Shown here: positions 26,948 to 44,626 of the stretch, piece by piece | Layout of the letters: every line of letters starts with the position of its first letter | Position numbering within the stretch: the stretch's first letter is position 1 | From: Candidatus Latescibacterota bacterium | Lineage (GTDB): Bacteria; Latescibacterota; UBA2968; GCA-2709665 | Reading direction: 5' to 3' | Assembly (NCBI GenBank): GCA_965205485.1 | Contig: OZ242180.1 | Coordinates: 544,001-608,000, forward strand | DNA length: 64,000 nucleotides | Notes under the pieces: generated by a model | Told to the model about the DNA's origin: nothing | What the model saw: the letters and a program-made list of their open reading frames with translations, nothing else | The model's database searches: none | Translations under genes and position numbers: made by a program

Positions 26948-27175
26948 TGTCCCTTCCCGGGAACATGAATACACCCACTCGCCGCATCATTCGGAGTGTC
27001 CTCCTGTCTCGTTGATATCCTGCGTGGCGGGAAAACCGGTTTTTTTCGAACGGTAGCTCAACATTGGCCACAGGATCATTGCCCGTTTTGTTCCTTTTTG
27101 TATATTGGAAACTGGAGAGGAGTTGACGTCCAGATTCCTGGCGGGCGACGGTCTGTTTCTATTGCGAGCGCATCC

Positions 27176-27880
27176 ATGACAGGCAACATTCTGGTGGTTG
27201 AAGACGAAGTCGATATTCAGGAGATCGTCTCCTACAACCTTGAGAAGGCGGGATTTGCGGTGGCTGCCGTCGATTCGGGCGAGGCGGCCCTCGAATCGAT
27301 CCGGAAAGAGCTTCCCGATCTGGTCGTACTGGACCTGATGCTGCCGGGCATGGACGGGCTGGAGGTCTGCAGGCTGCTGAAGCAGGACGCAGAAACCCGG
27401 GACCTGCCCATTCTCATGCTGACCGCGCGCGCCGAGGAAGTCGACCGCGTCGTCGGGCTGGAGCTGGGAGCGGACGACTATGTCATCAAGCCGTTTTCCG
27501 CACGTGAACTGACGTTGCGCATCCAGGCCATCCTGAGGCGGCTGGTGGAAGGGCGGGATTCAGCGGAGGAAGCGTCGGATACGGACGCGATGACATTCGG
27601 TCCTCTTACCATCGACAAAGCCGCCCACAGGGTAACCGTGGACGGCGACACACTGGCGTTGACATCCACCGAATTCAGTCTGTTGGCTACGCTGGCAGAG
27701 CGCAGGGGGCGTGTGCAGTCCCGCGAAGAATTGCTGAACACGGTCTGGGGTTACGAATACGCCGGATACGGCCGGACCGTGGATACCCATATCCGGCGTT
27801 TGAGAGAAAAGCTGGGCGGCGCCGGCGAATTGGTGGAGACGGTTCGAGGCGTAGGTTACCGATTCATGGAAGAACACTGA
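27176..27880 (+). CDS. phoB: OmpR/PhoB family response regulator, probably PhoB
   Basis: ILVVEDE, LDLMLPGMDG, GADDYVIKPFS, RTVDTHIRRLREKL..ETVRGVGY; lies near phoR and the pst cluster. Confidence 0.8.
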   Translation: MTGNILVVEDEVDIQEIVSYNLEKAGFAVAAVDSGEAALESIRKELPDLVVLDLMLPGMDGLEVCRLLKQDAETRDLPILMLTARAEEVDRVVGLELGADDYVIKPFSARELTLRIQAILRRLVEGRDSAEEASDTDAMTFGPLTIDKAAHRVTVDGDTLALTSTEFSLLATLAERRGRVQSREELLNTVWGYEYAGYGRTVDTHIRRLREKLGGAGELVETVRGVGYRFMEEH

Positions 27881-28074
27881 GAAGCTGTGTTAAAATTACC
27901 GGTGAGCTCCCGAGCGCGAGCGAAAAAGTGGCGGTTATGAGGCGCGAGGGGCGCGCAGCGCCGACGGGAAAACCCGCCCTATAGGCGAGCTAGCCTATCT
28001 CGGGTGGGTTTGACCAACGCCGACCTGCGCTTTTGCAGCCGCGCGAAGACCGCTGGGAATATTAAGACAGCTTC
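27881..28074. mobile_element. MITE-like element (194 bp)
   Basis: TIRs GAAGCTGTGTTAAAATT / AATATTAAGACAGCTTC (15/17 match); TGA on both flanks (3-bp duplication equal to the phoB stop); no ORF. Confidence 0.7.
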
Positions 28075-28086
28075 TGAAGGATTGAG

Positions 28087-29547
28087 ATGTTTACATTGGC
28101 GCCTTCACCTGAGAGCCAGGGGATACCCTCACGGGCGGTCCTGAATTTCCTCAAGCGGATCGACTCTGAGCGCATTTGCATGCACGGGTTCCTGCTCGCG
28201 CGTCACAACAGAATCGCGGCTGAGGGTTACTGGGCCCCGTGGACGGCTGAGCGCAAGCACCGTATGTATTCCGTCAGCAAGAGCTTCGTGGCGCTGGCTG
28301 TCGGACTGATGATCGACGAAGGCTTGCTCGCCCTCGATGATCGGGTCGCGGACTACTTTCCGGACAAAGTGCCCGAAGACCTTCATCCGTGGCTTTCAGT
28401 TTCGACTGTACGAGATCTCCTGACGATGTCGACCCCCCATACGAGAACTTCCTATACGAGGGACGACCCGGACTGGGTCTGGACCTTCTTCAACCGGACT
28501 CCCTCTCATCCTCCCGGAACGGTCTTTTCTTACGACACCGCGGCAACCGTTGTACTCACGGCCCTGGTCGAACGGCTTGCCGGTATGCCCTTTCTGGACT
28601 ATATGCGGCCGCGTTTCCTGGATCGGATCGGCTTCTCCGCCGATGCGTGGTGCATCCGAACGCCCGAGGGCGTGTCGTGGGGCGGGTCGGGAGTCATCTG
28701 CACGCTTCGCGATCTGGCCAGAGTCGCGCTCTCCTGCTTGAACGACGGCTTGTGGGCCAACGAGAGAGTGCTTCCCGAGTCTTACGTACTGGCCGCCACC
28801 GCCAGGCAGATCGACAACACCATCCGGGGGAATTGCGGATACGGGTATCAGATCTGGCGGGAGGAGGAAAACGGGTTCTCATTCCGCGGGATGGGCAGCC
28901 AGTACGCCATCTGTTTTCCCGACCAGGCGTTTCTGTTCGCCTGCATCGCCGACACGCAGGGCGCACCGGCCGGCAGCGCCATTCCCACCGTGATGCGCGA
29001 GGAACTCCTTCCCCACCTCTCGGGCTCGCCGCTTCCGGAGGATCCCGACGCGCAGGCGGAACTATCCGATAGAACCGGTCGGTTGGAGGTTCTGCCGGTC
29101 CCCGGAAGACGCGACGCGACGGCGGCCTCGGACGTCCACGGAACCTGGTATGTTTTGGTGGGCAACCCGATGGGGATCACGCGCATGCGCCTGTCCTTCG
29201 AGGGCGACCAGGGCGTCTGGGAGTACACAAACGGTCAGGGCGACAATGTGCTGCGGTTCGGAGTCGGACGCGTGCAGTCCGGCAGATTCCCGCAACGCAA
29301 CTACTTCGGTGAACAGATCGGCGTGGTCCCCGGCATCGAATACGAATGCATGGCCTCGGCCGCATGGATCGACGATCGGACGCTCAATATGGAAATCCTC
29401 ATTACGGACATCTACCTTGGAAGGCTCATGATATCCTTCGCCTTCAAGGGCGAGGAGATCGGCGTCTTCATGACAAAGCAGGCAGAGTGGTTCCTCGACG
29501 AATACAACGGGTTCGCCGGAGGAAAGCGCTTCCAAGAAGCTGTTTAG
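28087..29547 (+). CDS. Serine hydrolase, beta-lactamase/AmpC family
   Basis: YSVSKS (SxxK), DLLTMS, PGTVFSYD, YGYQIW, GMGSQY. Confidence 0.85.
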   Translation: MFTLAPSPESQGIPSRAVLNFLKRIDSERICMHGFLLARHNRIAAEGYWAPWTAERKHRMYSVSKSFVALAVGLMIDEGLLALDDRVADYFPDKVPEDLHPWLSVSTVRDLLTMSTPHTRTSYTRDDPDWVWTFFNRTPSHPPGTVFSYDTAATVVLTALVERLAGMPFLDYMRPRFLDRIGFSADAWCIRTPEGVSWGGSGVICTLRDLARVALSCLNDGLWANERVLPESYVLAATARQIDNTIRGNCGYGYQIWREEENGFSFRGMGSQYAICFPDQAFLFACIADTQGAPAGSAIPTVMREELLPHLSGSPLPEDPDAQAELSDRTGRLEVLPVPGRRDATAASDVHGTWYVLVGNPMGITRMRLSFEGDQGVWEYTNGQGDNVLRFGVGRVQSGRFPQRNYFGEQIGVVPGIEYECMASAAWIDDRTLNMEILITDIYLGRLMISFAFKGEEIGVFMTKQAEWFLDEYNGFAGGKRFQEAV

Positions 29548-29760
29548 AAAATAAGAAACAATACTATAGACTACGAAACACGCGAAAAATCGAGACTACG
29601 AAAAATCCGTGGGTGAAATCAATTGGCACAAGAGGCCCAAAATAGTGTCATGGTTTTCCGGCTTTTCTTATATTTGCAATAGGCCGGTCCGGACTCCATT
29701 CGGATGGCGAAGATGAATTGGCCCTTTTGGTGGAAATGGGAACTGGAATTCACCCCACAC

Positions 29761-29962
29761 CACGGCTGTCCAGGACAGAAACCGATTTGGGACCGGTGTG
29801 GTTGGCGTTTCCGGGAGCGAGGGCATCCTGCCCTCGACATCGGGTAACTCGTCGCACACGGTGTTTTCCGTGACCCGGTGTCGGATTGAATGGCCCCGTC
29901 AGTCTCTCGATGCGAATAGGGATAGGGGACGCGAAGTTCGAGGGCAGGATGCCCTCGCTCCG
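29761..29962. repeat. REPIN-like element, copy A (202 bp, inverted REP doublet)
   Basis: GGAGCGAGGGCATCCTGCCCTCGA ... TCGAGGGCAGGATGCCCTCGCTCC; colinear homolog at 38119-38320. Confidence 0.8.
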
Positions 29963-30015
29963 TGTGAATTGCTTGTCATTGTCACCGCCTATCCGGTCGA
30001 AGAGAGAAAAGAGCA

Positions 30016-30285
30016 ATGAGAGACAGATATCTGGAAATCACGTTTCGAAACGGGCGACCGCTGGCAGCGTACCTGTATTTTCCCAGAATGGTCAGGGCAA
30101 GGAGTGTAAGGACAGAGAAGATTCGGAAGGGATTGTTGGTGGATTACGAGGCGGAAGGACACCCGATCGGTCTGGAGATCACGGCTCCGAACGAAGTGAC
30201 GTCGGACCAGATTAACGAAGTGTTGAGGGAGCTGGACGTTCCGCTGCTTGATCCGGAAGAGTTGGCTCCATTACAGGCAGCATAA
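30016..30285 (+). CDS. DUF2283-family protein
   Basis: AAYLYF, GLLVDY..G.PIGLEITAP; this family is usually TA-associated, no partner seen. Confidence 0.7.
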   Translation: MRDRYLEITFRNGRPLAAYLYFPRMVRARSVRTEKIRKGLLVDYEAEGHPIGLEITAPNEVTSDQINEVLRELDVPLLDPEELAPLQAA

Positions 30286-30450
30286 GGCGGTCCGTAACCC
30301 GCGAAAACATGTCGCGACAGCGCATCAAGACCAGGTGAAATCCTGTATTCCGGATTGCACTTCTAAATGGCCTGTGTCTCTCCATTTTCGAAATGGCACG
30401 GGTCATTTTTGTACATTTCCGGACAGAGCAGTTCGAGAAAGGCGAGTGGG

Positions 30451-31890
30451 ATGCGACTACATTGGCGGTTGATGCTGCTCTGCGCTGCGGTGATCGCTAT
30501 TGCCATGGCCGCCGTGCATCTGTACGCAAACCGTACGATTCACGAAATCCTGCTGGCCTCCGTGCTGGGGTTGACCCTGGCGCTGCTGCTGACCTATAGT
30601 GTCTCCCGATCGGTGTCGCGGCCGTTGCGGAAACTGACCGGGATCGCGCGCTCCATAGGGGCAGGCGACTTCGATAAACGGGTTCCGTCCGATACCTCGC
30701 CACGAGAAATCAGGGATCTCGCGCGGGCCCTGGATTCAACCCGGCGGCAGGTCCGGGACCGGATCGCGGCCATCCTCGGTGAAAAGTCGCAGCTCGAGAC
30801 GATCCTCGCGGACATAACCGCGGGGATCCTTGTTACGAGACCCGACGGCCGCGTTCTGCTGACGAACCGCACGTTCGAACGCCTGTTCGGCGTTACGTCC
30901 CCTACGGACGGACGGCCCCCGGTGGAAATGATCCGCGACGTACAGGTTCAGGCGGCAATCGAAAATACACTGAGAACGGGCGAGGCCCTGACGCATACGA
31001 TGACGACGTCGGGTATGCCCGAACGACATTTCGACGTTCACGTGGGACCCGTTCGCCGGGATGGCGGGGGGATGGGTGCGGTAGCGGTCTTCTACGATAC
31101 GACAGAACTGCATCGGCTGGAGCGCGCGCGCAAGGATTTCGTGGCCAATGTATCGCACGAGATACGTACGCCGCTAACGGCCATAAAAGGGTGCGCGGAT
31201 ACACTGGCCGAAGGTGCGCTTGAAGACCGCGCAACCGCCGATCGATTTGTGCAGACCATCCTCACGCATTCAGACCGGCTTCAGCTTCTGCTGGAAGACC
31301 TGCTCGACCTGTCGCGGCTGGAGTCCGACAGCCTGAAGATAGAAATGGATGACTTCGCAATCCGGCCGGCTGTGGACCGGGCGTGCGATTCGGTCCGCCA
31401 GCAGGCCGCCGGCAAGGATATCTCGATTCTGATGGAGGTTCCGGATGAATTGACGGTTCGCGGCGACCCGAAACTGATTGAGCAGGCTCTGGTGAACCTG
31501 CTGGACAATGCGGTGAAATATACTCCGGGAGGCGGGAAGGTGCGGGTTGCTGTCAGGCGGTTGGGTAAGGACGAGGATGTCGAGGGTTCGGACAACACGC
31601 CGGGGTTTATTCTGACGGCGGAAGCCGGCCGCACGGACTCTGTTTCAAGGCCGGCCAGAGTTGTGGTGCTGGAGGTCGTGGATAACGGTATCGGAATCCC
31701 TTCGGATTCGCTGCCGCGCGTGTTCGAACGGTTTTACCGTGTGGAAAAGGGACGCTCGAGGAGTCTGGGTGGAACCGGTCTGGGGCTCTCGATCGTCCGT
31801 CATATCATCGAATCCCACGGGGAACGGGTTTACGCAAAGAGCGTACTCGGTGCGGGCTCGACGTTCGGCTTCACGCTGCCGATTGTATAG
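30451..31890 (+). CDS. phoR: Sensor histidine kinase PhoR (HAMP-PAS-HisKA-HATPase)
   Basis: RKDFVANVSHEIRTPLTAIKG, NLLDNAVKYT, DNGIGIP, FERFYRV..RSR..GGTGLGLSIV. Confidence 0.85.
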   Translation: MRLHWRLMLLCAAVIAIAMAAVHLYANRTIHEILLASVLGLTLALLLTYSVSRSVSRPLRKLTGIARSIGAGDFDKRVPSDTSPREIRDLARALDSTRRQVRDRIAAILGEKSQLETILADITAGILVTRPDGRVLLTNRTFERLFGVTSPTDGRPPVEMIRDVQVQAAIENTLRTGEALTHTMTTSGMPERHFDVHVGPVRRDGGGMGAVAVFYDTTELHRLERARKDFVANVSHEIRTPLTAIKGCADTLAEGALEDRATADRFVQTILTHSDRLQLLLEDLLDLSRLESDSLKIEMDDFAIRPAVDRACDSVRQQAAGKDISILMEVPDELTVRGDPKLIEQALVNLLDNAVKYTPGGGKVRVAVRRLGKDEDVEGSDNTPGFILTAEAGRTDSVSRPARVVVLEVVDNGIGIPSDSLPRVFERFYRVEKGRSRSLGGTGLGLSIVRHIIESHGERVYAKSVLGAGSTFGFTLPIV

Positions 31891-31906: not shown

Positions 31907-31943
31907 GAAGACGGGGGATCGCAAAGGCGTCCCCCGTTTTTTT
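31907..31943 (+). terminator. Rho-independent terminator between convergent phoR and ppk1
   Basis: ACGGGGGA/TCCCCCGT stem followed by a T run. Confidence 0.7.
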
Positions 31944-31953
31944 CTGTCAGGCT

Positions 31954-34095
31954 TCAGCCTGATGGCGCGGCCGGCCCGTTGGCGGCGAAGAAGTCCGGTA
32001 TCTCGAACCGTTCTCCTCTGGCCAGCCCCATCAGGACTTCCTGTGAGGAAACGTCTGTCCGTCCGTTCGTGGCCTCCACGCGGCGATGGTCGCCGTCCGG
32101 CAGGACTTCACGCGCTTTGACATTATCCGCCAGACACGGGGAGAGAATCCAGGACTGGATTTTCCGGATGAGAACCGGATCTTCGATGGGACAGAGGATT
32201 TCCACCCGTCGACGGAGATTACGAGGCATCCAGTCCGCGCTCCCGGTGTAAATCTCCGGTCTGGATCCGTTTTCGAACATGTAAATTCGGCTGTGCTCAA
32301 GATAACGCCCGACGATGCTTCTCACACGTATGCGATCGCTGATTCCGGGAATGCCCGGGCGGATACAGCAGATCCCACGGACGATCAGGTCGACGTCAAC
32401 GCCGTTCCGGGAAGCCTTGTAGAGCGCTCGCACGACCCTTGCATCCTGAAGCGAGTTCATTTTGCAGACGATGCGGGCGGGTCGTCCGGCCCTGGCGTGT
32501 TCAATCTCCCGATCGATTTTGGCCAGAATGGAATCCATCATATTGAAGGGCGCGACAAGCAGCTTCCTGACTTCAGGTCGTTCAGACTGGGTGGTGAGCA
32601 GGTTGAACACCTCGGCCACGTCGCTCGTGATGTCTTCCCTGGCAGTCATCAGACCCAGATCCGTATATATCCGCGCCGTCGAAGCGTTGTAGTTGCCCGT
32701 ACCGATGTGGGCGTACCGGCGAAGACCGTCCGATTCGCGACGGACCAGCATGGAGAGCTTGCAGTGCGTTTTTAAGCCAACCACGCCGTACGCGACGTAT
32801 ACGCCGGCATCCTGCAGTTGCCGAGCCCATCGGATATTGGAAGCCTCGTCGAACCGGGCCTTGAGTTCTACAATAACGGTAACCTCTTTGCCTGCCTCCG
32901 CGGCTTTGAGCAGCGCGTCCATAATGGGAGAATCTTCGGTCGTACGATAAAGCGTCTGTTTTATGGCCAGCACATCCGGGTCCCGGGCGGCGGACTGAAT
33001 AAACTGCACGACCGGATAAAACGAGTCGTATGGATGGTGCAGCAGGATGTCCCGTTGCCTGATCTCGGCGAAAAGCTGGTCGTAGTCTTCGGCGAAGGGG
33101 TATTCCGCCGGGTGGTACGGCGCATCCTTCAGGTCCGGACGTCTCGTGGCCGCGTAGAGCATCATCAGGCGATTGAGATTGACCGGTCCGTTGACGCGGT
33201 AGACCTGTTTTTCGCGCAGATGATAAATCGCCCGCAGCCTCCGTTCGATCTGCTTAGGCGCCGCCGCGTCGATTTCCAGCCGGACCGTATCGCCTTTGCG
33301 CCTGCGTTTGAGTTCATCTTCGATGGCCAGGAGAAGGTCGTCGGCTTCTTCTTCATCGAGGTAGAGGTCGCTGTTGCGGGTGATGCGAAACGCGGCAGTG
33401 CCCAGTATTTCATAACCGCGGTAAAGCTCCGGGACGTGCGCGCGCACAAGGTCGGCCAGAAACACGTAATCGACGCGCCTGCCCTCGTCTTCCCTGGGCA
33501 GACGGATGAGACGCGGCAGCACGCGCGGAACGGTAACGACACCGAACAGGGTGTCGCCCTCGCCGTCCTCGAGCAATACGGCAATGCAAAGCGACTTGTT
33601 CACCACGCGTGGAAATGGATGGGCCGGGTTGACGGTGAGGGGCGTGATAACCGGATGCAGTTCATCCAGCCAGTAGTCGCGTATGAATGCCTGTTCCGGG
33701 TTATTCAGGTCTTTCAGCGAACGGATATGCACATCGGCCTTTTTCAGGGCGGGCAACAACTCACCATTCCAGCAGGCGTATTGTTCGTCGACCATCCGGT
33801 GGGCTTCAATGGATACGGCTTCATACAGCTCTTCCGGTAACAGCCCGTCCGGGCCGGCATCGGGAACGCCGGCTTCCATCTGCTGAAGCAAGCCCGCAAC
33901 GCGGATTTCGAAGAACTCGTCCAGGTTGTTCGCCACTATGGCGAGGAACTTCACCCTCTCCAGCAGAGGATTCTTCGGGTCCCGGGCTTCCTCGAGGACG
34001 CGTTCGTTGAAACGAAGCCAGGAGATTTCCCGATTGGTATACAGTTTTGGATCGTCGAGGTTCATACCGCGAGTCCCGTTGTTGACCAACGTCAT
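31954..34095 (-). CDS. ppk1: Polyphosphate kinase 1
   Basis: NREISWLRFNERVL, NLDEFFEIRVAG, HHPYDSF, IKQTLYR, ELKARFDE, KTHCK, GTGNYN, YLEHSR, SADWMPRN; start may instead be 34065. Confidence 0.97.
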   Translation of the reverse strand: MTLVNNGTRGMNLDDPKLYTNREISWLRFNERVLEEARDPKNPLLERVKFLAIVANNLDEFFEIRVAGLLQQMEAGVPDAGPDGLLPEELYEAVSIEAHRMVDEQYACWNGELLPALKKADVHIRSLKDLNNPEQAFIRDYWLDELHPVITPLTVNPAHPFPRVVNKSLCIAVLLEDGEGDTLFGVVTVPRVLPRLIRLPREDEGRRVDYVFLADLVRAHVPELYRGYEILGTAAFRITRNSDLYLDEEEADDLLLAIEDELKRRRKGDTVRLEIDAAAPKQIERRLRAIYHLREKQVYRVNGPVNLNRLMMLYAATRRPDLKDAPYHPAEYPFAEDYDQLFAEIRQRDILLHHPYDSFYPVVQFIQSAARDPDVLAIKQTLYRTTEDSPIMDALLKAAEAGKEVTVIVELKARFDEASNIRWARQLQDAGVYVAYGVVGLKTHCKLSMLVRRESDGLRRYAHIGTGNYNASTARIYTDLGLMTAREDITSDVAEVFNLLTTQSERPEVRKLLVAPFNMMDSILAKIDREIEHARAGRPARIVCKMNSLQDARVVRALYKASRNGVDVDLIVRGICCIRPGIPGISDRIRVRSIVGRYLEHSRIYMFENGSRPEIYTGSADWMPRNLRRRVEILCPIEDPVLIRKIQSWILSPCLADNVKAREVLPDGDHRRVEATNGRTDVSSQEVLMGLARGERFEIPDFFAANGPAAPSG

Positions 34096-34202
34096 CTGCG
34101 TCTGCAACGCGCCAAGATAATCCAACACTATGCCCCAGTCAATCGGAATCGGGCTTGCAAGTCACTACAGTTCTGGAGTTTGGCGGACCCCGACGTCGCC
34201 TG

Positions 34203-34952
34203 TCAACGTCTCCACGCCATCGCCTTCAATTCATGCCAGAGGTCCTGATACGCGTTCGCGGCAGGCGAACCCGGAGCGAAGCATGGGACCGGTTCCCGGT
34301 GGATACCCATCTTTTCAACTTCCGAGGCGTAGGGAATCTGCGTATCCAGAAACCGGTGTTCCCGTTCTCTGCCGGTTGTCAGGATTTCGCTGTGCATGCG
34401 CTTCCGTTTCTCGACCATTGTGAAAAAAGGGTAGATCCCGGAGACGTCCCGGCCCCTGGACAGGAAGAATCCTACCAGCTGCTCATAGGTACGCATGGAT
34501 AGCGTGGTCGGAATACAGGGAACCAGAACGATGTCGGAGGCAAAGAGCATATTCTCCGACACCAGGCCGATGCCGGGCGGACAGTCGAGAAAGATGAAGT
34601 CGTATGTCTTGCGATAGGGTTTCAGAATGCGATGAAGCCGCTTCGGTGAGCCTTTGAGTTTGCTCAGCGCCATGTCCAGGTTTCTGAACGACAGGTTCGA
34701 AGGAAGCAGGTCCAGGTTCTCATAGTCAGTACCGCGAATGCGCTTCTCTATCCTGCGCCCACCTCGAAGGAATTTTCCGCCCGGCAGTTTCCTGGAGGGT
34801 TTGATGCGAAAATAGAACGCGGCCGAACCCTGGGGGTCCAGATCGAACAGAATGGTCTGCGCGCCATCGCGCGCCGCGAGGTAGGCCAGGTTCACCGCCG
34901 CGGCGGTCTTTCCCACCCCGCCCTTGATGTTATACAGGGCGACTGTTGCCAT
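34203..34952 (-). CDS. ParA/MinD family ATPase (orphan)
   Basis: Deviant Walker A KGGVGKT, DLDPQG, FLDCPP, VPCIPT; no parB nearby. Confidence 0.9.
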   Translation of the reverse strand: MATVALYNIKGGVGKTAAAVNLAYLAARDGAQTILFDLDPQGSAAFYFRIKPSRKLPGGKFLRGGRRIEKRIRGTDYENLDLLPSNLSFRNLDMALSKLKGSPKRLHRILKPYRKTYDFIFLDCPPGIGLVSENMLFASDIVLVPCIPTTLSMRTYEQLVGFFLSRGRDVSGIYPFFTMVEKRKRMHSEILTTGREREHRFLDTQIPYASEVEKMGIHREPVPCFAPGSPAANAYQDLWHELKAMAWRR

Positions 34953-34970
34953 AGGCGTCGCTCACGGTCT

Positions 34971-36506
34971 TCAGGCGAACAGGCGTCGGAACGTAGCGGC
35001 GACCTCCGCCCGGTTGAATTCAGTAAATGTCTTTGAAAACGCCGCGCGGACGGTTTGCTGTTCGCGGTACAGGCAGCCGATCAGCCCGCCGATGGCGGCG
35101 AAGGTTTCCGGGTGAGTCCTCGCCGGGGACGATACTTCCAGGTACGACTTCAGGTCGTCCTGTTGAACGGAAAGGTCGTTGAAGTCGCCCAGGTTGTCCT
35201 GCAGGTTCTTGAGGTGTTCGACAATCAGGCGGACTTCTCCCGAAGGAAAAAGGGACGTGAAGAACTCGAGGAGGTATCGCAGTTTCTTGCACTCGATGCG
35301 AAGCCGGTGCAGTTCGGCATCCGGCGTGGACGTTTCAATCCCGGCTCCCAGTTCGATTACGCGACCGTATCTCTTGCCGATAAACCTTTGCGCCAGCGCG
35401 ATCGCCGGCGCTTCCGCATTGTCCGGAGAATCGGCGTCCGGCGGGCCCTCCAGGAACGCCGCCCAATCCGCGGCGATTCTCTGGTAAGTGTCACCGTCCA
35501 GGGCGGCGGCCAGACGCCTGTGTTCACCCGTACGTTCCGCTCGCAGGGATTCGAACAGGGGATCCAGGCGAGGCCGCAGATATCCTGGCAGGAGAGACCG
35601 GTACGCGTCTTCCTTGAGCAGGGTGACGTCCAGATCGCGCAGGCGGTTGGTGAGTTTTCCGAGCCAGGAAAAGTCTTTCCGGAAACGACCGAGCGGGACT
35701 TCCGGAAAAACGGATTTGATCTGGCTGAGCGCCGATCGGGTACGCCGGACACCCACCCTGAAATCATGCAGAAATTCGGTATCGACGTCCTCTTTGATAC
35801 CCGCTTCATTGCGCCTGATCGTTCTGAACAGGTGACCCAGAATTCGCCTCGCCGCCTCCGCGCCGTTCAGGTTGGGTTCCAGCACGATATTGAGTTTCGA
35901 GGTATAGTCCCCCGGGTTTCTGCCGGTTGCCCGCATGGCGGCGTGGAACAGGTCTTCGGTCCCGGATTCGGCGCCGGCGTCGCGCAGCGACCGGTCCAGC
36001 CTGCGCGAGTGTTTTTCATACCCCCTGACGGGCCGCAGCGACACCGTGTTGATCGGTTGTCCGTTACGAGAGGTGTCCGCCACCCTGGCCTGTTCAAGCT
36101 CTGCGATAACGACGGTCTTTTCACTCCTGTTGAGGACGCGCACGGTCTGCCTGCGGGTTGTGGCGCGCGCGAGGGGCAACAGCGCCCGTACGCTCACATG
36201 CGCCTGCAGGGCCTCTTTCAGGGATCCCTCGGGAAAATCCGTGCTGTATACCGGTTCGGTTCCACACGGCACGCTGACCGATGCGACTGTCTCGCGGTCC
36301 GGCAGCCTGTAGAGAAGGTAACGGTCCTGATCATGTAACAGCACCAGGTTCTTGTTGAAAAGGCGCCAATCGAAAGTGTCGAAAAAGGTCTGGACCCCCA
36401 CTCTGTCGTCCATGGGTTCGCAGGTATGGGAACCGGCGGCCCGCTCCCAGATGCGGCGTGGATCGACCGATGCCGGCAGGCGCAGAGTACATCGTTTGGT
36501 TTTCAC
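34971..36506 (-). CDS. CHAD-domain (polyphosphate-binding) protein with degenerate CYTH-like N-terminus
   Basis: FFDTFDWRL (CYTH-like); EFLHDFRVGVRRTRS, RDLDV, LHRLRIECKKLRYLLEFF, LQDNLGDFND (CHAD). Confidence 0.9.
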   Translation of the reverse strand: MKTKRCTLRLPASVDPRRIWERAAGSHTCEPMDDRVGVQTFFDTFDWRLFNKNLVLLHDQDRYLLYRLPDRETVASVSVPCGTEPVYSTDFPEGSLKEALQAHVSVRALLPLARATTRRQTVRVLNRSEKTVVIAELEQARVADTSRNGQPINTVSLRPVRGYEKHSRRLDRSLRDAGAESGTEDLFHAAMRATGRNPGDYTSKLNIVLEPNLNGAEAARRILGHLFRTIRRNEAGIKEDVDTEFLHDFRVGVRRTRSALSQIKSVFPEVPLGRFRKDFSWLGKLTNRLRDLDVTLLKEDAYRSLLPGYLRPRLDPLFESLRAERTGEHRRLAAALDGDTYQRIAADWAAFLEGPPDADSPDNAEAPAIALAQRFIGKRYGRVIELGAGIETSTPDAELHRLRIECKKLRYLLEFFTSLFPSGEVRLIVEHLKNLQDNLGDFNDLSVQQDDLKSYLEVSSPARTHPETFAAIGGLIGCLYREQQTVRAAFSKTFTEFNRAEVAATFRRLFA

Positions 36507-36800: not shown

Positions 36801-36865
36801 GTAACCATTTTGTAACACACGAGTGACCATTTCGTAACAGAAGGGGCGCATATTTGGACTATACT
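36801..36865 (+). promoter_or_regulatory. Pho-box-like array with -10 element
   Basis: Four direct repeats at exact 11-bp pitch (GTAACC 36801, GTAACA 36812, GTGACC 36823, GTAACA 36834); the last overlaps the -35 position of TATACT (36860-36865); upstream of porin-pstS. Confidence 0.75.
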
Positions 36866-37025: not shown

Positions 37026-38000
37026 ATGCCTCTGAAGGGGATGGACTTGGGTATTGCGGCACTGTTGAGCCTGGTTTTTGTCGGGCCTGCGGAGGGCGCC
37101 GAAGGCAAGCTCAAAGGGATTGCCTTCGGTGATTATTATTTCGTTGTCGCGGGAGCGGACAGGAACGAAAACGGATTCAAATTTCGGAGGATCTATCTGA
37201 CGTACGACCTCAAGTGGAATGAACGATGGTCCGGACGGGTGCGTTACGAAGCAAACGATGCTGGATTCGGCGGCGAGGACAAGATGAGGCCGTTCGTGAA
37301 GCACGGGTATTTGCGATACGGTGCGAACGGCCAGAAGGTGTACATGGGGTTGTTCGGCACACCCACCTGGAACGTATCCGAACGAATATGGGGTTACCGA
37401 TCAATTGCAAAGACAATCATGGATATGCGCAAGATCGGTTCTTCCGCGGATCTCGGGGTGGGATATAAGGGAAAGCTGGATGGAGCGGGCAGGGTGAACG
37501 TGCAGCTGATGTTCGGCAACGGCAGCGGGCAACGCCCGGAGACGGACAACGGAAAGAAAGTGTACAACCTGATTCATCTGAAACCCACGGACGTCGTTGA
37601 AGCCACAGTCTACGTCGACTGGGAAGGCAAGCCCGAAGGCAGGGATCGCATAACGTTCGCCGGGTTGCTGGGTGCTTCAGTCGAGAGTTTTCGTTTCGGT
37701 ATAGAGGGATTTATACGTAACAACAGAAAGGCACAGTCGGGCGGCGACGTACAATTGCGGGGTCTGTCCGCTTTCGGTAACGTAAACTTGAAGCCCAGGG
37801 TCGATGTATTCGGACGTCTGGACTTTTTTGATCCCAACCGGGACACGGAACAGGACGAGGAGTATATGATTATTGGCGGAATCAATGTGGCGCCGGCCGG
37901 GAATATCCACATCATGCCCAATGTGGTGGCGACGATCATGCGGTCTCCCGACGCGGAGACCGAAGTGATTCCCCGGATGACGGTATGCTACCAATTCTAG
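37026..38000 (+). CDS. Outer-membrane beta-barrel, probable phosphate-selective porin
   Basis: GGGGAGG RBS, signal peptide, NGFKFRRIYL (OprO/P-like FxxRRxxL), amphipathic strands, terminal Phe (YQF); first gene after the Pho box. Confidence 0.65.
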   Translation: MPLKGMDLGIAALLSLVFVGPAEGAEGKLKGIAFGDYYFVVAGADRNENGFKFRRIYLTYDLKWNERWSGRVRYEANDAGFGGEDKMRPFVKHGYLRYGANGQKVYMGLFGTPTWNVSERIWGYRSIAKTIMDMRKIGSSADLGVGYKGKLDGAGRVNVQLMFGNGSGQRPETDNGKKVYNLIHLKPTDVVEATVYVDWEGKPEGRDRITFAGLLGASVESFRFGIEGFIRNNRKAQSGGDVQLRGLSAFGNVNLKPRVDVFGRLDFFDPNRDTEQDEEYMIIGGINVAPAGNIHIMPNVVATIMRSPDAETEVIPRMTVCYQF

Positions 38001-38118
38001 TAGCACATGTACCCCTTCATTCCTGTTCCGCCCGTTCGTTGTGACCATTGTTCCATGCATTTCTGCCGCGATCTTCCGATTTCCCTCGCGATTGAAAAGA
38101 GATTGTGACATTCGACAT

Positions 38119-38320
38119 CACTGCTGTCCAGGACAGAAACCGATTTGTGACCGGTGCGGTTGGCGTTCCCGGGAGCGAGGGCATCCTGCCCTCGACGTCG
38201 GATAAAGCGTCGCACACGGTGTTTACCTTGAACCGGTGTCGGATTGAGTGGACCCGTCAGTCTCTCGACGCGAACAGGGGTCGGTGACGCGAAGTTCGAG
38301 GGCAGGATGCCCTCGCTCCG
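38119..38320. repeat. REPIN-like element, copy B
   Basis: Same length, orientation and REP doublet as 29761-29962. Confidence 0.8.
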
Positions 38321-38448
38321 GTTGCACGTGGATCATGTCGTGAAAGTGGTTGGAAAAGACGATTTTGGACAGGTGTGATTCGACATATTAATCGATCGTT
38401 CGTACTCAATCCGACAAAGAGACTGCATAATTGGGAGGCACAGAAAGG

Positions 38449-39444
38449 ATGATGCGTACTATTGTCGTTGTAATTTCGCTGATTGTCACCGTGGTTCCGG
38501 TCCGCGCGCAGACGCTTGAGGTCGATCCGCGAATTCCGGCTTACACGAAAGTGCGAGGAATTTTTGGGAGCGCCAGCAGCATCGGGTCGGATACGATGAA
38601 CAACCTGATGGCGCTTTGGCTGGAGGGCTTTCGGAAATATTATCCCAACGTCAATGTCCAGATCGAAGGCAAGGGATCCAGTACCGCCCCACCCGCGCTG
38701 ATCGAAGGCGCCGGGCAGTTCGGACCCATGTCCCGTGCGATGAAGGCAACGGAGGTGGACAAGTTCGAGCAGGCGTTCGGGTACCCGCCCACGCCGTTGC
38801 GGGCCGGGCTCGATGCCCTGGCGGTCTTTGTCAACAAGGACAATCCAATTGAAGGACTGACCCTGCAGCAGCTGGACGCGATATTTTCGAAGACCCGTCG
38901 ACGGGGGCATCCAAAGGACATAAAACGCTGGAACGAAGCGGGATGGAACGGCGATCGGGCATCGGCGCTGATCAGTATGTACGGTCGGAATTCTGCATCA
39001 GGCACGTATGGTTTCTTCAAGAAGAACGCCCTTTCCAAGGGCGATTTCAAGGATGAGGTCAAGGAACAGCCGGGGTCGGCTTCCGTCGTGCAGGGGGTCG
39101 CGGAAGACCGGTTCGGAATCGGTTATAGCGGAATCGGATACAGGACGTCGGACGTGCGCGTAGTCCCCCTTTCGGATGATCCCACGGATGGGTTCAAAGA
39201 CGCCGGCATGGACAATGTCCTCGACGGCACCTATCCGCTCGGCCGTTTCTTGTTCATCTATATCAACAAGACGCCGGGAAAGCCGCTCGACCCGATGGTA
39301 CGAGAGTTCTGCAGGTACATTTTTTCCAAAGAGGGTCAGGAAATCGTAATCAAGGATGGCTATATGCCTGTTCCCTATGAAGTCGCCGAAGAGGAACTGG
39401 CGAAGCTTGAAGCGGATGGATCGCAGTCCGCAACATTCCGTTGA
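38449..39444 (+). CDS. pstS: Phosphate ABC transporter substrate-binding protein
   Basis: GSDTM, GKGSSTA, GPMSR, YGRNSASGTY, IGYSGIGY, YPLGRFL. Confidence 0.95.
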   Translation: MMRTIVVVISLIVTVVPVRAQTLEVDPRIPAYTKVRGIFGSASSIGSDTMNNLMALWLEGFRKYYPNVNVQIEGKGSSTAPPALIEGAGQFGPMSRAMKATEVDKFEQAFGYPPTPLRAGLDALAVFVNKDNPIEGLTLQQLDAIFSKTRRRGHPKDIKRWNEAGWNGDRASALISMYGRNSASGTYGFFKKNALSKGDFKDEVKEQPGSASVVQGVAEDRFGIGYSGIGYRTSDVRVVPLSDDPTDGFKDAGMDNVLDGTYPLGRFLFIYINKTPGKPLDPMVREFCRYIFSKEGQEIVIKDGYMPVPYEVAEEELAKLEADGSQSATFR

Positions 39445-39544
39445 TAGAGCCGTTCTGCAGGCGAGCCCGTATGGGCTTGCTCAATGGACTGCTCAGGGTG
39501 AACGGCTCCTCCGTTCCCGGAGGAACAGATCAAGGTTTTGGGGT

Positions 39545-41797
39545 ATGGCGCAACCGAATGACGCAAACGCAGGGAAGTCCCGATCGCTACCGGGCATTAC
39601 GCCGGCGGCGCGCACCATGGACCGCATCGGACGCTGGGTGATCGCCGTAGGCGGAGTGGGGGTGATCCTGGTTGTGCTGGGCATTCTGGCGTTTGTGCTC
39701 CGCGAAGCATATCCGCTCTTCCTGTCGCCTGCGCCTGCAACGATCGTGACGAGCCACACCGTGGACGGCAGTGCGGATCAAAGACCGCTGGCGGCGGGCG
39801 CCGACCCGTATCGCGAGGTTGCCTATCTGGTGCGTCCGGACGGGATCGAGTTCATCCGGCTGGCAACGGGGGAGACCATTCGTCGGGAACGCGGCGACAT
39901 TTTTCAGGATCGCCGCGTGGTGTCAGCTCGGCCTTCGCTTACGGACGGAACCCTTGGTCTGGGCATGTCGGATGGTCACATTGCCGCGGTCAAGGTCCAT
40001 TATCGCGTGACCTACCCGGAAGGCATACGTTTCGTCACGCCGGAGCTGGATATTCAGGGAAACGTGGCGCTGGACCGGGAGGGCGAACCCGTCACCCGTG
40101 TTTCTTATCGGACCGACGGTGCGCGCCGGTCGACCGCCGCGGGGATCACGTCGTCGGGACGGCTTCTGGTGGCGGGAATGATGAAGAGGAGGGGTCTGCT
40201 GGGCGGCGGAAAGCTCGATACATACACTTACGACCTGACGGCCCAGGTCGACGGTACGCCAACAACCGTGCTCGTGGACGGGAGCGGTCGGCATCTTCTG
40301 GCCGGCACGGACCGTGGAGAAGTGTATTGCTGGGACGCACAGGACGTGCGGGCGCCACCTTCCCTCGTGCAGCGGTTCCGTGCTTCGGACCTGGCGATTA
40401 CGGCCCTCGCTTTTGTTCTTGGCGACGTATCGGTGGTTGTGGGCGACGCCGGCGGACACGTCAGCACCTGGTTTCCGGTGCGCGGTCCGGACGGCAGTGT
40501 TTACGCGTCGTATCGAAAGATACACGTCTTTCGTTCGCATCGTACTGCCGTGAGCGCGATCGCGCCATCCGCGCGCGACAAACAGTTTCTGACGGGCAGC
40601 GCCGGCGGACACGTGATGCTGCATCACATGACGTCCGCCCAGACGTTCTTCAGCGTGGCGAGCGGATCGAACGTAACCGGTCTTACGTTTGCACCCAAGG
40701 CAGACGGGTTTCTGTGTCTGGACGGCGACGGACGGTTGAACCACTATCGGTTGTCCAATCCGCATCCTGAAGTGACGCTGAAGACATTGTTCGGCAAAGT
40801 CTGGTACGAGGGATATGGCGAACCCGAGTACGTCTGGCAGTCAACGGGAGGGACCGACGAGTTCGAACCCAAATTGAGTATTATTCCTCTGGCGTACGGT
40901 ACGGCGAAGGGTACGTTTTACGCGATGTTTTTCGCGCTGCCCCTGGCTGTGCTCGCCGCCATCTACACGTCCGAGTTCGCCCACCCGCGAGTGCGCGACG
41001 TGGTCAAACCCACGGTGGAGTTGATGGCATCCCTGCCCAGCGTGATTCTCGGGTTTCTGGGTGGTCTCTGGCTGGCGCCGTTGCTGGAGCGCCACGTGGT
41101 AGGGGTTTTGCTGCTTTTGCCGACCGTGGCGCTGACGATCGTCTCCGCTTCCTGGGTCTGGTCCAGGCTGCCCGGCCAGCTGAAGAACCGATTGCCGGGA
41201 CCGGAGGTGTTCTACGTGGCGGTGTCCCTGGTGGGCATCTGGTTGGCTCTGGCGCTCGGGCCCTGGATGGAAGGCGCGCTCTGGGGCGGTAACTTTCAAC
41301 GCTGGCTGTCGGACTCCGCCGATAGCCGCTATGACCAGCGGAATTGCCTGGTTGTGGGTTTCGCCATGGGCTTTGCCGTGATCCCCATCATCTATACGAT
41401 CTGCGAAGACGCACTGACAAGCGTACCCGCGCACCTGAGGGCCGGATCTCTGGCTCTGGGCGCAACGCCATGGCAGACGGCCGTTCGCGTGGTGCTCCCC
41501 ACGGCCAGCCCGGGGATTTTTTCCGCGACGATGATTGGCTTCGGGCGGGCGGTCGGCGAGACGATGATCGTCCTCATGGCAACGGGCAATACGCCCATCA
41601 TGGAATGGAGCATCTTCAACGGGATGCGCACCATGTCGGCCAACATCGCCGTGGAGATTCCCGAGGCGCCGCACGAGGGTACGCTCTACCGCGTGCTCTT
41701 TCTGACCGGTGTCCTGCTTGCGGGTGTGACGTTCATCGTCAACACCGTAGCGGAAATCGTGCGGCAGCGGCTTCGGGAACGGTACAGCAGGATTTAA
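39545..41797 (+). CDS. pstC: Phosphate ABC transporter permease PstC, long form with beta-propeller insert
   Basis: KPTVELMASLPSVILG, EDAL..VP..GSLALGATPWQT, GRAVGETMIVLMATGN. Confidence 0.92.
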   Translation: MAQPNDANAGKSRSLPGITPAARTMDRIGRWVIAVGGVGVILVVLGILAFVLREAYPLFLSPAPATIVTSHTVDGSADQRPLAAGADPYREVAYLVRPDGIEFIRLATGETIRRERGDIFQDRRVVSARPSLTDGTLGLGMSDGHIAAVKVHYRVTYPEGIRFVTPELDIQGNVALDREGEPVTRVSYRTDGARRSTAAGITSSGRLLVAGMMKRRGLLGGGKLDTYTYDLTAQVDGTPTTVLVDGSGRHLLAGTDRGEVYCWDAQDVRAPPSLVQRFRASDLAITALAFVLGDVSVVVGDAGGHVSTWFPVRGPDGSVYASYRKIHVFRSHRTAVSAIAPSARDKQFLTGSAGGHVMLHHMTSAQTFFSVASGSNVTGLTFAPKADGFLCLDGDGRLNHYRLSNPHPEVTLKTLFGKVWYEGYGEPEYVWQSTGGTDEFEPKLSIIPLAYGTAKGTFYAMFFALPLAVLAAIYTSEFAHPRVRDVVKPTVELMASLPSVILGFLGGLWLAPLLERHVVGVLLLLPTVALTIVSASWVWSRLPGQLKNRLPGPEVFYVAVSLVGIWLALALGPWMEGALWGGNFQRWLSDSADSRYDQRNCLVVGFAMGFAVIPIIYTICEDALTSVPAHLRAGSLALGATPWQTAVRVVLPTASPGIFSATMIGFGRAVGETMIVLMATGNTPIMEWSIFNGMRTMSANIAVEIPEAPHEGTLYRVLFLTGVLLAGVTFIVNTVAEIVRQRLRERYSRI

Positions 41798-41915
41798 TAT
41801 CAAGCGCCTTCGCGCCTTTCAGGCGCGAGTTTGGTAAAATGTACAGCGTATTGTCCTCGGCGGATCCTCGTTTCCGCTTACCGGTCGCCCGAAGACCGCG
41901 TCCGGAGTCAATCGA

Positions 41916-43520
41916 ATGAACGGTTTCTGGAAGTCCGGACAGGCGTATATCTGGCTGACGGGCGGCGCGCTCGCGTTCTGCGTCCTGATGATTGCAGGTC
42001 TGATCGGCCTGGTGGTCTATAACGGACTCGGCTTTTTCTGGCCCGCCGAGCTGACGGCGTTTCGTCTCAATGGCGGCGTCCGCGTGATGGGACAGATTTG
42101 GGACCGTCAGGAGATTCCCGATCGCGACGGGGAACACCGGGTTCAATTGAGGGTGGCGAACCGGGACGCGTACGGAATTGACTTCAGGTGGGTCAACGAA
42201 TCAGGTATACTGGAACGAACGCAGCCAGTGGACGCGGTGGTATTCGAGCGGCGGGAATGGGGGCATCTTTTCGGTTTCCTGGAAGCCGTATACGAAGGCG
42301 AGGACAAAGTGGCCGGAGGCGGCCCTGCCGGCTGGGCGGCGTTTCAGAAGGAGTTGCGGCGTACGGGCGCGCTTTTGAATCAGGTTCGGGACATCGAGCA
42401 CAACGCGATTTCGGACCTCAACCGGCGGATCGAGCAGCTTCGTCTGGAAAAGCGAAGGCTCGAACTGGCGCCGGACGCGCGGCAGGAACAGGTATCTCGA
42501 CTCGACGTCAAAAACCGTGAATATTGGACGCGGTACGAATCTCTCGCGGCCGAACTGAACCGCCTGAGGGCCGAGAGTGAAGTCCCGCAACTGGACGTCC
42601 GGCTGGCGGGCGGGGAGATAAGACGGGTGGCGGTGGCGGACGTCGTGCGCGCATATCGGCCCAACAGTCTGGGCGTCTTCGGCAAGACGGGCGTGTACCT
42701 GGAACGGTCCTGGGAATTCCTGTCTGCCGAACCTCGTGAATCCAACACCGAAGGCGGCGTGTTCCCGGCGATCTTCGGTACCGTAATGATGGTCATTCTG
42801 ATGAGTCTTGCGGCGGTGCCGTTCGGGGTTCTGGCGGCGCTCTACCTGCGCGAATACGCCCGGCAGGGCCCACTCGTTCGAGCGATCCGGATCGCGGTCA
42901 ACAATCTCGCCGGAGTTCCCTCGATCGTCTTCGGAATGTTCGGTCTGGGATTCTTCGTCTACGGCGTTGGCGGCAACCTGGACCGGCTCTTCTTCCCCGA
43001 GGCGCTGCCCGCCCCCACGTTCGGCACGGGCGGGATCCTCTGGGCGTCGCTGACCCTGGCTCTTCTGACCGTACCGGTGATGATCGTCGCTTCCGAGGAA
43101 GCCCTGGCCTCCGTTCCGGGGGATGTGAGGGAGGGCTCGCTTGCGCTGGGCGCCACACAGTTTCAGACCATCTGGCGGGTGGTCCTCCCAGCGGCGCTGC
43201 CGGGCATTCTGACGGGCATCGTTCTCGTTGTGGCCAGGGGCGCGGGGGAGGTGGCGCCTTTGATGATTACGGGCGTGGTCAAGCTTGCGCCAACCCTGCC
43301 GGTGGACGGCGCCTGGCCGTTTTTTCACCTGGAGCGCAAGTTCATGCACCTGGGTTTCCATATCTATGACGTGGGCTTCCAGTCGCCCAACGTGGAGGCG
43401 GCCCGTCCGATGGTCTATACCACGACCCTGTTACTGATGTTCATCGTGCTTGCGCTGAACCTGACCGCGATCCAGGTCCGGTCGCGCCTGCGCAAGCGAT
43501 ACCAGAAAATCGGTCTGTAA
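41916..43520 (+). CDS. pstA: Phosphate ABC transporter permease PstA, long form
   Basis: GGVFPAIFGT, NNLAGVPSIVFG, EEAL..REGSLALGAT, ARGAGEVAPL. Confidence 0.93.
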   Translation: MNGFWKSGQAYIWLTGGALAFCVLMIAGLIGLVVYNGLGFFWPAELTAFRLNGGVRVMGQIWDRQEIPDRDGEHRVQLRVANRDAYGIDFRWVNESGILERTQPVDAVVFERREWGHLFGFLEAVYEGEDKVAGGGPAGWAAFQKELRRTGALLNQVRDIEHNAISDLNRRIEQLRLEKRRLELAPDARQEQVSRLDVKNREYWTRYESLAAELNRLRAESEVPQLDVRLAGGEIRRVAVADVVRAYRPNSLGVFGKTGVYLERSWEFLSAEPRESNTEGGVFPAIFGTVMMVILMSLAAVPFGVLAALYLREYARQGPLVRAIRIAVNNLAGVPSIVFGMFGLGFFVYGVGGNLDRLFFPEALPAPTFGTGGILWASLTLALLTVPVMIVASEEALASVPGDVREGSLALGATQFQTIWRVVLPAALPGILTGIVLVVARGAGEVAPLMITGVVKLAPTLPVDGAWPFFHLERKFMHLGFHIYDVGFQSPNVEAARPMVYTTTLLLMFIVLALNLTAIQVRSRLRKRYQKIGL

Positions 43521-43598
43521 CGGCTTCGCGCGTGGAATCATCGAGATGCGCGATCTGAACGGATCTCAAGAGGGACATTCAATCAGGAGTCAACAAGG

Positions 43599-44411
43599 AT
43601 GGACGTTGAAACAACGGCGCAGGACGCAGGTTTGGCGCAGGACGGCTCTGAAATCGAGAATCCCGTCGTAGAAGTAGATTCTCTGAACCTGTACTACGGC
43701 GACGCCCAGGCCCTGCACGACGTCAGTCTGACCGTGCCTCGACACAACGTCACCGCGTTTATCGGACCCTCGGGCTGCGGAAAGTCGACGCTGCTCCGAT
43801 GTATGAACCGATTGAACGATCTGATCGACTCGGTGAGGATAGACGGCGCGGTCCGCATCGAAGGGGAGGACATCTATGCCCACGGCTACGATGTGATTTC
43901 ACTTCGACGGCTGGTGGGGATGGTGTTTCAGAAGTCGAATCCGTTTCCCAAGTCAATCTACGAAAACGTGGTGTACGGGTTGCGGATCGCCGGGGAGAAT
44001 CGACGTACCGTCCTGGACGAGGTGGCGGAGCGAAGCCTCCGCGCGGCAGCGCTGTGGGACGAGGTCAAGGATCGACTGGAAGAGTCGGCGCTCGGGCTTT
44101 CCGGAGGGCAGCAGCAGCGGCTTTGCATCGCCCGGGCGATCGCCGTGGAACCTTCCGTGATTCTGATGGATGAACCCTGTTCGGCGCTCGACCCGATTGC
44201 AACCGGGCGAATTGAGGAGACGATCGAGGAGTTGAAGAGACAATACACCATTGCGATTGTTACCCACAACCTCCAGCAGGCTTCCCGTATCTCGGACTGG
44301 ACGGCCTTCTTTTACCTGGGAAAGCTGGTGGAACACTCGCGTACCGAGGAGATGTTCACGAACCCGGGGCTGAAGCAGACGGAGGACTATGTGACCGGCA
44401 GGTTCGGTTAG
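43599..44411 (+). CDS. pstB: Phosphate ABC transporter ATP-binding protein
   Basis: [50 protein letters not shown]. Confidence 0.97.
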
Positions 44412-44571
44412 CAGCCCGTTGAAAAAGTCCATCCGGGCTGCGGCCGGCCCTTGCGGTCGAAATACTGTGTTGCGCTCCCTCGCCGAATCGAGGGATGGGA
44501 CTCGGTCGCGCGCCTTGTCTTCGGCCACAATGGCTCGGCCTCGCCTGCAGAGCGACTTTCTCAACGGACTG
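44412..44571. mobile_element. MITE-like element (160 bp)
   Basis: TIRs CAGCCCGTTGAAAAAGTC / GACTTTCTCAACGGACTG (16/18 match); flanks TTAG/TCAG; begins immediately after the pstB stop. Confidence 0.7.
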
Positions 44572-44626
44572 TCAGTCGAAACGCCGTACTGCGAATTAAC
44601 GCGGGGTTTATCAAACAGGATGCGCT

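Follow-up and report, generated by a model that had tools for sequence, protein, structure and literature searches.

A conserved CHAD-ParA gene pair in a Latescibacterota genome as a candidate system for the placement of polyphosphate granules

Why is a gene for a ParA-type ATPase, with no parB at its side, encoded between a gene for a CHAD-domain protein and ppk1, the gene for the polyphosphate (polyP) kinase PPK1? The question is raised by a stretch of 64,000 nucleotides (the window) from a Candidatus Latescibacterota bacterium (assembly GCA_965205485.1, contig OZ242180.1, positions 544,001 to 608,000), in which the original prediction saw a single three-gene operon for the positioning of polyP granules. 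In the relevant sections of two articles the placement of these granules is called open, with no ATP-driven system known for them (PMC13556221, PMC13052382). The three co-oriented genes are all real. The analysis presented here shows that what is conserved is the pair of CHAD and ParA genes, ppk1 being a variable neighbour with its own conserved promoter-like site, and assigns a probability of about one half to the explanation that this pair ties polyP granules to an ATP-driven ParA, which would space them or share them between daughter cells.

The ParA-CHAD module is real, widespread and patchily distributed. Genomes were sampled by phylum around named seeds, the phylum names being taken from the seed titles. 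In the phylum of the window ParA was detected in 28 of 101 genomes and all 28 copies were linked to CHAD, which bears out the existence of a dedicated orphan ParA subfamily coupled to CHAD. The same arrangement was displayed by 30 of the 38 copies read in Bacteroidota (39 of 151 genomes; two contig-end fragments were unread) and by 23 of 33 copies in Gammaproteobacteria (32 of 251 genomes), where one more copy was weakly linked, one stood behind ppk1 and eight stood alone. Six of 121 Desulfobacterota genomes encode this ParA (four copies head-to-tail with CHAD, one convergent, one alone), and in Chloroflexota it was present in one of 121 genomes, the seed itself. In the reverse direction, 21 of 24 gammaproteobacterial copies of the N-terminal domain of the CHAD protein (N-domain) were followed by ParA, one had it on another contig and two had no match (one unpublished genome was left out and one genome was unscored). 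These samples are fairer than a set of 79 loci taken from the best 80 of 128 confirmed matches, a set biased by seeding with query peptides, in which CHAD lies directly upstream of ParA in 76 loci (exceptions: L040, L079 and L055, the last at a contig edge). A mirror-tree correlation of ParA and CHAD distances (r 0.88, Spearman 0.56) was not used, since shared descent explains it. No parB was found beside any member of the ParA subfamily in the fetched loci, the genome's own ParB matching its own locus only; the absence of a nearby parB noted in the window extends to all of them, with the exception of the control locus that holds the parA-parB pair of the genome. This canonical pair is located at another site (C1:12562-14221), meaning that the ParA of the window is an extra, ParB-less copy. 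The anticipated link to polyP genes held in part: at least 46 of the 79 loci contain ppk1 or ppk2 (and at least 32 SixA and at least 24 an intact CYTH gene, many contigs being short), but many members stand alone.

Evidence on ppk1 separates it from the pair. Its product is a PPK1 (TIGR03705, 924 bits against a cut-off of 466; four Pfam domains), and the gene lies directly 3' of parA in seven of seven copies from the genus of the window; the 21 remaining copies of the phylum have no ppk1 closer than 1.5 kb. Among the strong ppk1 matches in more distant loci, 21 of 25 lie upstream of CHAD, and 11 of the 46 genomes with ParA that were tested gave no ppk1 match. The ATG start shared with relatives, which do not share the upstream starts, places the probable beginning of ppk1 137 bp 3' of parA, and 48-49 bp before this codon the pattern TTGAC(T/G)-17-TAT(C/A)(T/A)T occurs in 11 of 11 close relatives, one of them with a perfect TATAAT. 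The chance expectation, derived from a genome-wide count, is about 0.001 per 137 bp, the relatives not being independent kin; promoter prediction in the window alone rated the site no better than chance. The variable placement of ppk1 and this promoter-like site rule out a three-gene operon as the conserved unit, and PPK1, directly behind parA in seven of the 28 copies of the phylum, is not a fixed third part.

Sequence comparison places this ParA in a distinct subfamily of basic, ParB-less proteins with intact ATPase motifs. A profile built from 59 aligned members isolates this group, with matches of at least 194 bits and none between that value and the cut-off (E 1e-42), the Soj protein of the same genome reaching 107 bits; one Bacteroidota outlier scored 178 bits. 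The deviant Walker A motif described earlier is confirmed with K10 as signature lysine, and K10, K15, D37, D39 and D123 are invariant in the 59 aligned members as well as in 35 CHAD-linked and 38 unlinked ones. The richness in Lys and Arg is likewise real and conserved: the net charge is +14 (median +11 in the 59 members) vs -5 for the genome's own Soj, and the positive charge is spread over residues 49-73, 100-108 and 182-185. Foldseek placed the protein closest to Soj/ParA structures (template modelling scores of 0.84-0.88), ahead of BcsQ and FleN, and NCBIfam holds no above-cut-off family for it. A C-terminal membrane-targeting amphipathic helix was not found; the chain ends with the fold helix 230-248, and the alignment columns past 245 are unconserved or gapped. 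With the numbering of the genome's own Soj presumed to match that of Bacillus subtilis Soj, the equivalent of Soj R189 is R183, which is kept in 33 of 35 linked members, flanked by K184 and accompanied by the basic R219. R189 is one of two basic Soj residues, the other being R218, named for DNA binding in the part of the literature consulted (PMC3778016).

The partner consists of an N-terminal domain with the TTM/CYTH fold (residues ~1-200) and a long-type CHAD domain (residues 201-511), modelled by AlphaFold2 with a predicted local distance difference test score (pLDDT) of 91.7; NCBIfam provides no name for it. The CHAD domain is 41% identical to that of CtCHAD (6QV7; Z 36.7, root mean square deviation (rmsd) 1.6 A over 311 residues). 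Its residues H247, R250, R290, R410 and Y411 (59 of 59 aligned members) and R254 (58 of 59) align to H253, R256, R296, R418, Y419 and R260 of CtCHAD, a protein reported to bind polyP with dissociation constants of 147 nM and 1.9 uM and whose binding is lowered by mutation of these six residues (PMC6537752). Other CHAD proteins have been localized to polyP granules in vivo, according to work cited in PMC6537752 and PMC13556221. The N-domain shows the tunnel fold of TTM/CYTH proteins (Z 15.4, rmsd 3.1 A over 178 residues; Z ~15 to TTM enzymes), in agreement with the CYTH-like N-terminus proposed before. Since a profile comparison with the intact CYTH neighbours found nothing (probability 0.7%), the connection with CYTH relies on these structure matches and on atlas features (0.94 to CYTH clusters). 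According to the published account of TTM enzymes, catalysis needs glutamates at two metal sites, ExExK in strand 1 and ExE in the last strand (PMC4641920). With the strands mapped by order, no conserved Glu was found in columns 2-11 or 152-159, and an E.E.K pattern occurs within the first 45 residues of two of 59 members; the intact CYTH neighbours carry EIExKF. The missing ExExK of the original prediction thus stands, and the N-domain is likely an enzyme-dead TTM/CYTH fold, for which tripolyphosphatase activity is unlikely because the glutamates of both metal sites are missing. Invariant positions of the N-domain are D43, D46, W47, R107, K130 and G162.

How the two proteins might interact was addressed by folding two ParA chains (residues 1-245) together with the partner (residues 4-511), with linked sequences only as input. 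The complex scored 0.63, compared with 0.02 for the best of three controls; the score mark, reached by 116 of 157 solved and two of 215 mismatched pairs, is a rough guide here, where own alignments and three chains were used. The runs agreed in at least 38% of contacts, with a partner pLDDT of at least 83. The confident contacts join residues 48-51, 72-74, 76 and 81 of one ParA chain, a predicted patch that lies ~10 residues after switch I, to residues 123, 128-131 and 160-163 of the N-domain. No ParA-CHAD complex was present among the solved-structure matches. As the model saw linked sequences only, unlinked ParAs provide a separate test, for which 35 linked and 38 unlinked members were compared and L001-L079, seeded with the interface peptide, were left out. 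The mean conservation loss of the nine contact columns in unlinked members was 0.46 vs 0.12 for columns matched in conservation (p ~1e-4, kin being non-independent; 0.45 vs 0.12 at 60% redundancy), and the largest losses among the 249 columns of ParA were those of R49, D76, K73 and I50 (ranks 1-4); columns 51, 72 and 81 had no special loss. The combination of R or K at 49 and D or N at 76 occurs in 34 of 35 linked vs five of 38 unlinked members, a choice made post hoc for which no p-value is used. Loss of the patch recurs in several nested branches of ParA, and two of the five unlinked ParAs that keep it have an N-domain protein elsewhere in the genome. On the side of the partner, K130 is present in 22 of 22 N-domains whose genomes encode ParA and in neither of two whose genomes gave no ParA match. 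Altogether, it is very likely that ParA binds the CHAD partner, and the complex model as well as the patch loss in unlinked members support the adaptor role envisaged for CHAD, with the N-domain as the predicted docking site.

The explanation proposed here can be described as follows. The C-terminal CHAD domain would bind polyP, as judged from the 41% identical solved domain, and so coat the granules, and the TTM-fold N-domain, devoid of metal glutamates, would dock with K130 and residues 160-163 on ParA residues 48-51 and 72-76. By analogy only, ATP-bound ParA dimers would use R183, K184, K214 and R219 to attach to a polyanion, nucleoid DNA being the likeliest, and ParA would cycle off near the granules as McdA does at carboxysomes. 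The cargo would be made by PPK1 or PPK2, neither of them a fixed part. An association of the ParA-CHAD system with granules is regarded as likely; the odds that it positions or partitions them on the nucleoid, a step drawn from analogy, are about even. The pair constitutes a concrete two-protein candidate for polyP granule placement, with named residues (R49, D76 and D39 of ParA; K130 and G162 of the partner) and a cultured host that carries it, Paracoccus aestuarii DSM 19484, where the gene order is CHAD-ParA-CYTH-Nudix. If the proposal is true, a TTM-fold pseudo-enzyme would gain a function and ParA a new mode of docking by a partner. The subject is relevant to phosphorus-storing bacteria of sediments, sponges and wastewater.

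Several observations weigh against this explanation. The equivalent of Soj R218 is E211 (K218 in the genome's own Soj), and the position is E, Q or D in 50 of 59 members, so that nucleoid binding is not assured. In the ParA/MinD cargo family the usual activator is a basic N-terminal tail, as described in PMC10241942 and PMC11407121; such a tail was not found in the partner, where a median of five residues precede strand 1 and at least two K/R occur in five of 59 members. The ATPase-activating role given to CHAD in the original prediction is therefore doubtful, although the position of the predicted patch shortly after switch I leaves activation conceivable. For three of the five unlinked ParAs with a preserved patch, the genome yielded no N-domain match. 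In a sample drawn evenly over Pseudomonadota (65 ParA copies in 62 of 251 genomes; 43 copies read as DNA, the 14 weakest CHAD matches unlisted), just eight of the 65 copies adjoin CHAD, and the deepest branches of the ParA tree (FastTree, 116 sequences, one outgroup, modest support) are mostly stand-alone. A series of 38 genomes taken to be magnetotactic cocci, treated below, gave no ppk1 match in 11 of 11 genomes tested (present in 35 of 35 others) and no N-domain match in three of three, meaning that ParA also works without this partner. From the literature, in the passages that deal with the matter, polyP spacing in S. elongatus is independent of its only ParA, by a mechanism called unknown (PMC13556221), AlgP spaces the granules of P. 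aeruginosa (PMC9239181, PMC11894788), and the loss of CHAD proteins in Ralstonia had no clear phenotypic effect, according to work cited in PMC6537752. In view of these three cases, any such positioning system would be at most lineage-specific.

The stand-alone ParAs are both nested among linked members and placed at the base of the tree, and they retain the charge and the catalytic residues and lose the partner patch. Members without an adjoining CHAD gene were also detected directly behind ppk2 (four copies) or ppk1 (one copy) in two other branches (L086, L088, L089, L090, L125; L153), a possible switch of partner; four copies directly behind ppk2 are counted in the Pseudomonadota sample. 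One basal branch, in three genomes, lies upstream of a DUF3667 gene (L116-L118). The largest stand-alone group, 37 of the 65 Pseudomonadota copies, comes from the 38-genome series, the representatives of which form one clade (support 1.0). Magnetochrome domains were detected in three of three series genomes tested (G011, G015, G019) and in neither of two outside it, from which we infer that the series consists of magnetotactic cocci. Their solitary ParA gene has rnfH-truA and a cysK-like gene in its vicinity, the CHAD protein is separate and short (~315 aa), and ppk2 is present in five of five genomes, with several ppk2 genes. Magnetotactic cocci hoard polyP, up to 90% of the cell volume according to the portion of PMC8786505 consulted, which fits a polyP role of ParA by taxon inference.

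These members bear on a second explanation, that ParA binds polyP itself instead of DNA and is recruited by CHAD to control the number, size, fusion or surface patterning of granules. Its strong charge extends beyond the DNA face of Soj, the R218 equivalent is acidic and the stand-alone members, with their largest group in presumed polyP hoarders, preserve charge and catalysis without the partner patch; conversely, R183 and K184 are kept at the Soj R189 site, the best structural matches are Soj/ParA, a direct binder would be less in need of an adaptor and the magnetotactic connection is made by taxon. This alternative is held tentatively, as a possibility on the doubtful side. Still more speculative is its wider form, unlikely in our estimation, in which the subfamily would use polyP as its matrix for patterning, the third one after DNA and membrane; a dead TTM domain would recruit ParA in most hosts, and in polyP-hoarding magnetotactic cocci ParA would act by itself.

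Members of the ParA/MinD family such as BcsQ and FleN regulate enzymes or transcription. A third explanation considers ParA as a non-spatial nucleotide switch that, via CHAD, regulates polyP synthesis or breakdown (PPK1, PPK2, SixA, CYTH enzymes). It accounts for the predominance of phosphate-metabolism enzymes and transporters among the neighbours, for the ParAs directly behind ppk2 or ppk1 and for the source genome in which no ppx was found, so that turnover needs other parts; nevertheless, the set of neighbouring enzymes changes freely around a constant pair, a polyanion matrix is what the conserved basic surface suggests, and the closest folds are those of Soj/ParA ahead of BcsQ and FleN, so that a purely metabolic role is improbable. 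That ParA is a mere passenger beside CHAD, with a polyP-unrelated role in DNA segregation or with other cargo, is suggested by the many stand-alone members with unrelated neighbours and the mostly stand-alone basal branches, yet it is very improbable considering the canonical parA-parB elsewhere in the genome, the lack of a parB match beside any subfamily member, the overlapping or near-abutting CHAD and ParA genes across phyla, the predicted and covarying interface, and a match in just 10 of 72,556 plasmid records, a count that also led to rejection of a plasmid-partition origin. A CHAD-ParA unit that would place granules remains the best explanation of the locus, the features of which are listed in Table 1.

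Table 1. Position of the CHAD-ParA pair, its predicted contact sites and the surrounding features in the window
Feature	Position	Strand	Description
CHAD gene	34971..36506	-	511 aa; Pfam PF05235 at residues 222-450
N-domain hairpin, residues 123-131	36114..36140	-	invariant K130; predicted ParA contact
N-domain residues 160-163	36018..36029	-	invariant G162, near-invariant Y163; predicted ParA contact
parA	34203..34952	-	249 aa; Soj-like; AAA_31 match; 18-bp gap to CHAD gene
Deviant Walker A KGGVGKT (K10-T16)	34905..34925	-	within parA; signature K10
ParA residues 48-81	34710..34811	-	predicted partner patch (complex model and conservation test)
ppk1	31954..34065	-	703 aa; probable start 34065; open frame from 34128
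Sigma-70-like promoter site TTGACT-17-TATCTT	34114..34142	-	5' of ppk1; conserved in relatives
Pho-box-like array	36801..36838		four GTAAC/GTGAC half-sites, 11-bp period
porin, pstS, pstC, pstA, pstB, phoU	37026..45307	+	divergent context, outside the CHAD-ParA pair
phoB-like gene	26996-27880	+	context; convergent on ppk1 (within 26996..31890)
phoR-like gene	30367-31890	+	context; convergent on ppk1

The source genome is a single 5.13-Mb contig, 97% complete, whose nearest relatives are metagenome-assembled genomes titled Latescibacterota or Gemmatimonadota. Its polyP gene inventory comprises one CHAD gene, one ppk1 and one two-domain ppk2; a Ppx/GppA exopolyphosphatase had no match in this 97% complete genome, and genomes G002 and G004 likewise gave none. 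A third ParA-like gene (328 aa; C1:2553411-2555018, L081) is followed by a gene for an unknown protein of 201 aa and has no parB. The divergent porin-pstSCAB-phoU genes and the array next to them are present as the original prediction said. The array, called Pho-box-like after the 11-bp repeat known for Pho boxes, is the sole run of at least three half-sites at this spacing in the genome, and in relatives it tracks the porin(-pst) gene and not the CHAD gene. As a promoter of the CHAD-ParA pair it is not supported, no such array having been found in the 700 bp upstream of CHAD in five of 11 close relatives. PstC (39356-41797, ~810 aa, with a WD40-like beta-propeller region) and PstA (41916-43520, ~534 aa) are unusually long. 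Between phoB and phoR there are a beta-lactamase-family gene (PF00144; 28087-29547) and a variable stretch (29550-30360) in which relatives have small DUF4258/DUF2283 genes, and a G+C-rich hairpin followed by a T run on the + strand (~31909-31944) resembles a terminator between the convergent ends of phoR and ppk1. Among other loci, recurring neighbours of the pair (L017, L032, L043, L075, L123 and others) encode an HhH/Lys-rich protein, an ABM-domain protein and a metallophosphoesterase, and further ones are tandem ppk2, a Na/Pi cotransporter and an unnamed 200-aa gene (L036:8715-9314). In L069 two divergent units of short CHAD and ParA stand in mirror image, maybe an assembly artefact or an inverted duplication.

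Compared with known systems, the ParA of the window resembles McdA of the McdA/McdB system, as far as described in PMC13052382 and PMC10241942, in being small and ParB-less, with a signature lysine, a cargo-binding partner next to it and no membrane tail. However, the cargo here would be an inorganic polymer, the two ATPases are ~18% identical in the structural match and, in place of the basic disordered N-terminus of McdB, the partner offers a folded pseudo-enzyme domain joined to a polyP-binding domain, the predicted contact being a folded hairpin. Chromosomal Soj/ParA is the best match in sequence and fold and shares the R189 equivalent, but the window ParA lacks parB, differs in charge (+14 vs -5), has an acidic R218 equivalent and falls in a separate score class (at least 194 vs 107 bits). 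CtCHAD from Chlorobium tepidum (6QV7, 6QVA) has the same polyP residues and a similar N-terminal extension of ~206 residues; the sections of that study on CtCHAD treat the CHAD domain alone, without a link to ParA (PMC6537752). The CHAD-ParA pair is present in the named Chlorobium loci L044 and L051. A conserved ppk-parA-CHAD cluster of Acidithiobacillus includes the three gene types of the window; in the portions of the papers devoted to this cluster CYTH-CHAD is described as an adenylate cyclase whose active-site residues are conserved, and parA is treated as a gene for partition, without the idea of positioning (PMC6416229, PMC10892726). AlgP of P. aeruginosa also spaces polyP granules on the nucleoid, but in the relevant part of its description it is a histone H1-like protein without ATPase, and it is unrelated in sequence (PMC9239181). 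The architecture of TTM plus CHAD is shared with E. coli YgiF (5A60 matched) and TTM enzymes as covered in PMC4641920, from which the window N-domain differs in lacking the glutamates of both metal sites. No ParA system for polyP granules was found in open-licence PMC and bioRxiv main text; how new such a system is may also depend on the ATPase lists that supplement PMC10241942 and on figure S3 of PMC10892726. Set beside these systems, the CHAD-ParA module is likely a cargo-type system of the ParA/MinD family with a new type of partner and, likely, a new cargo.

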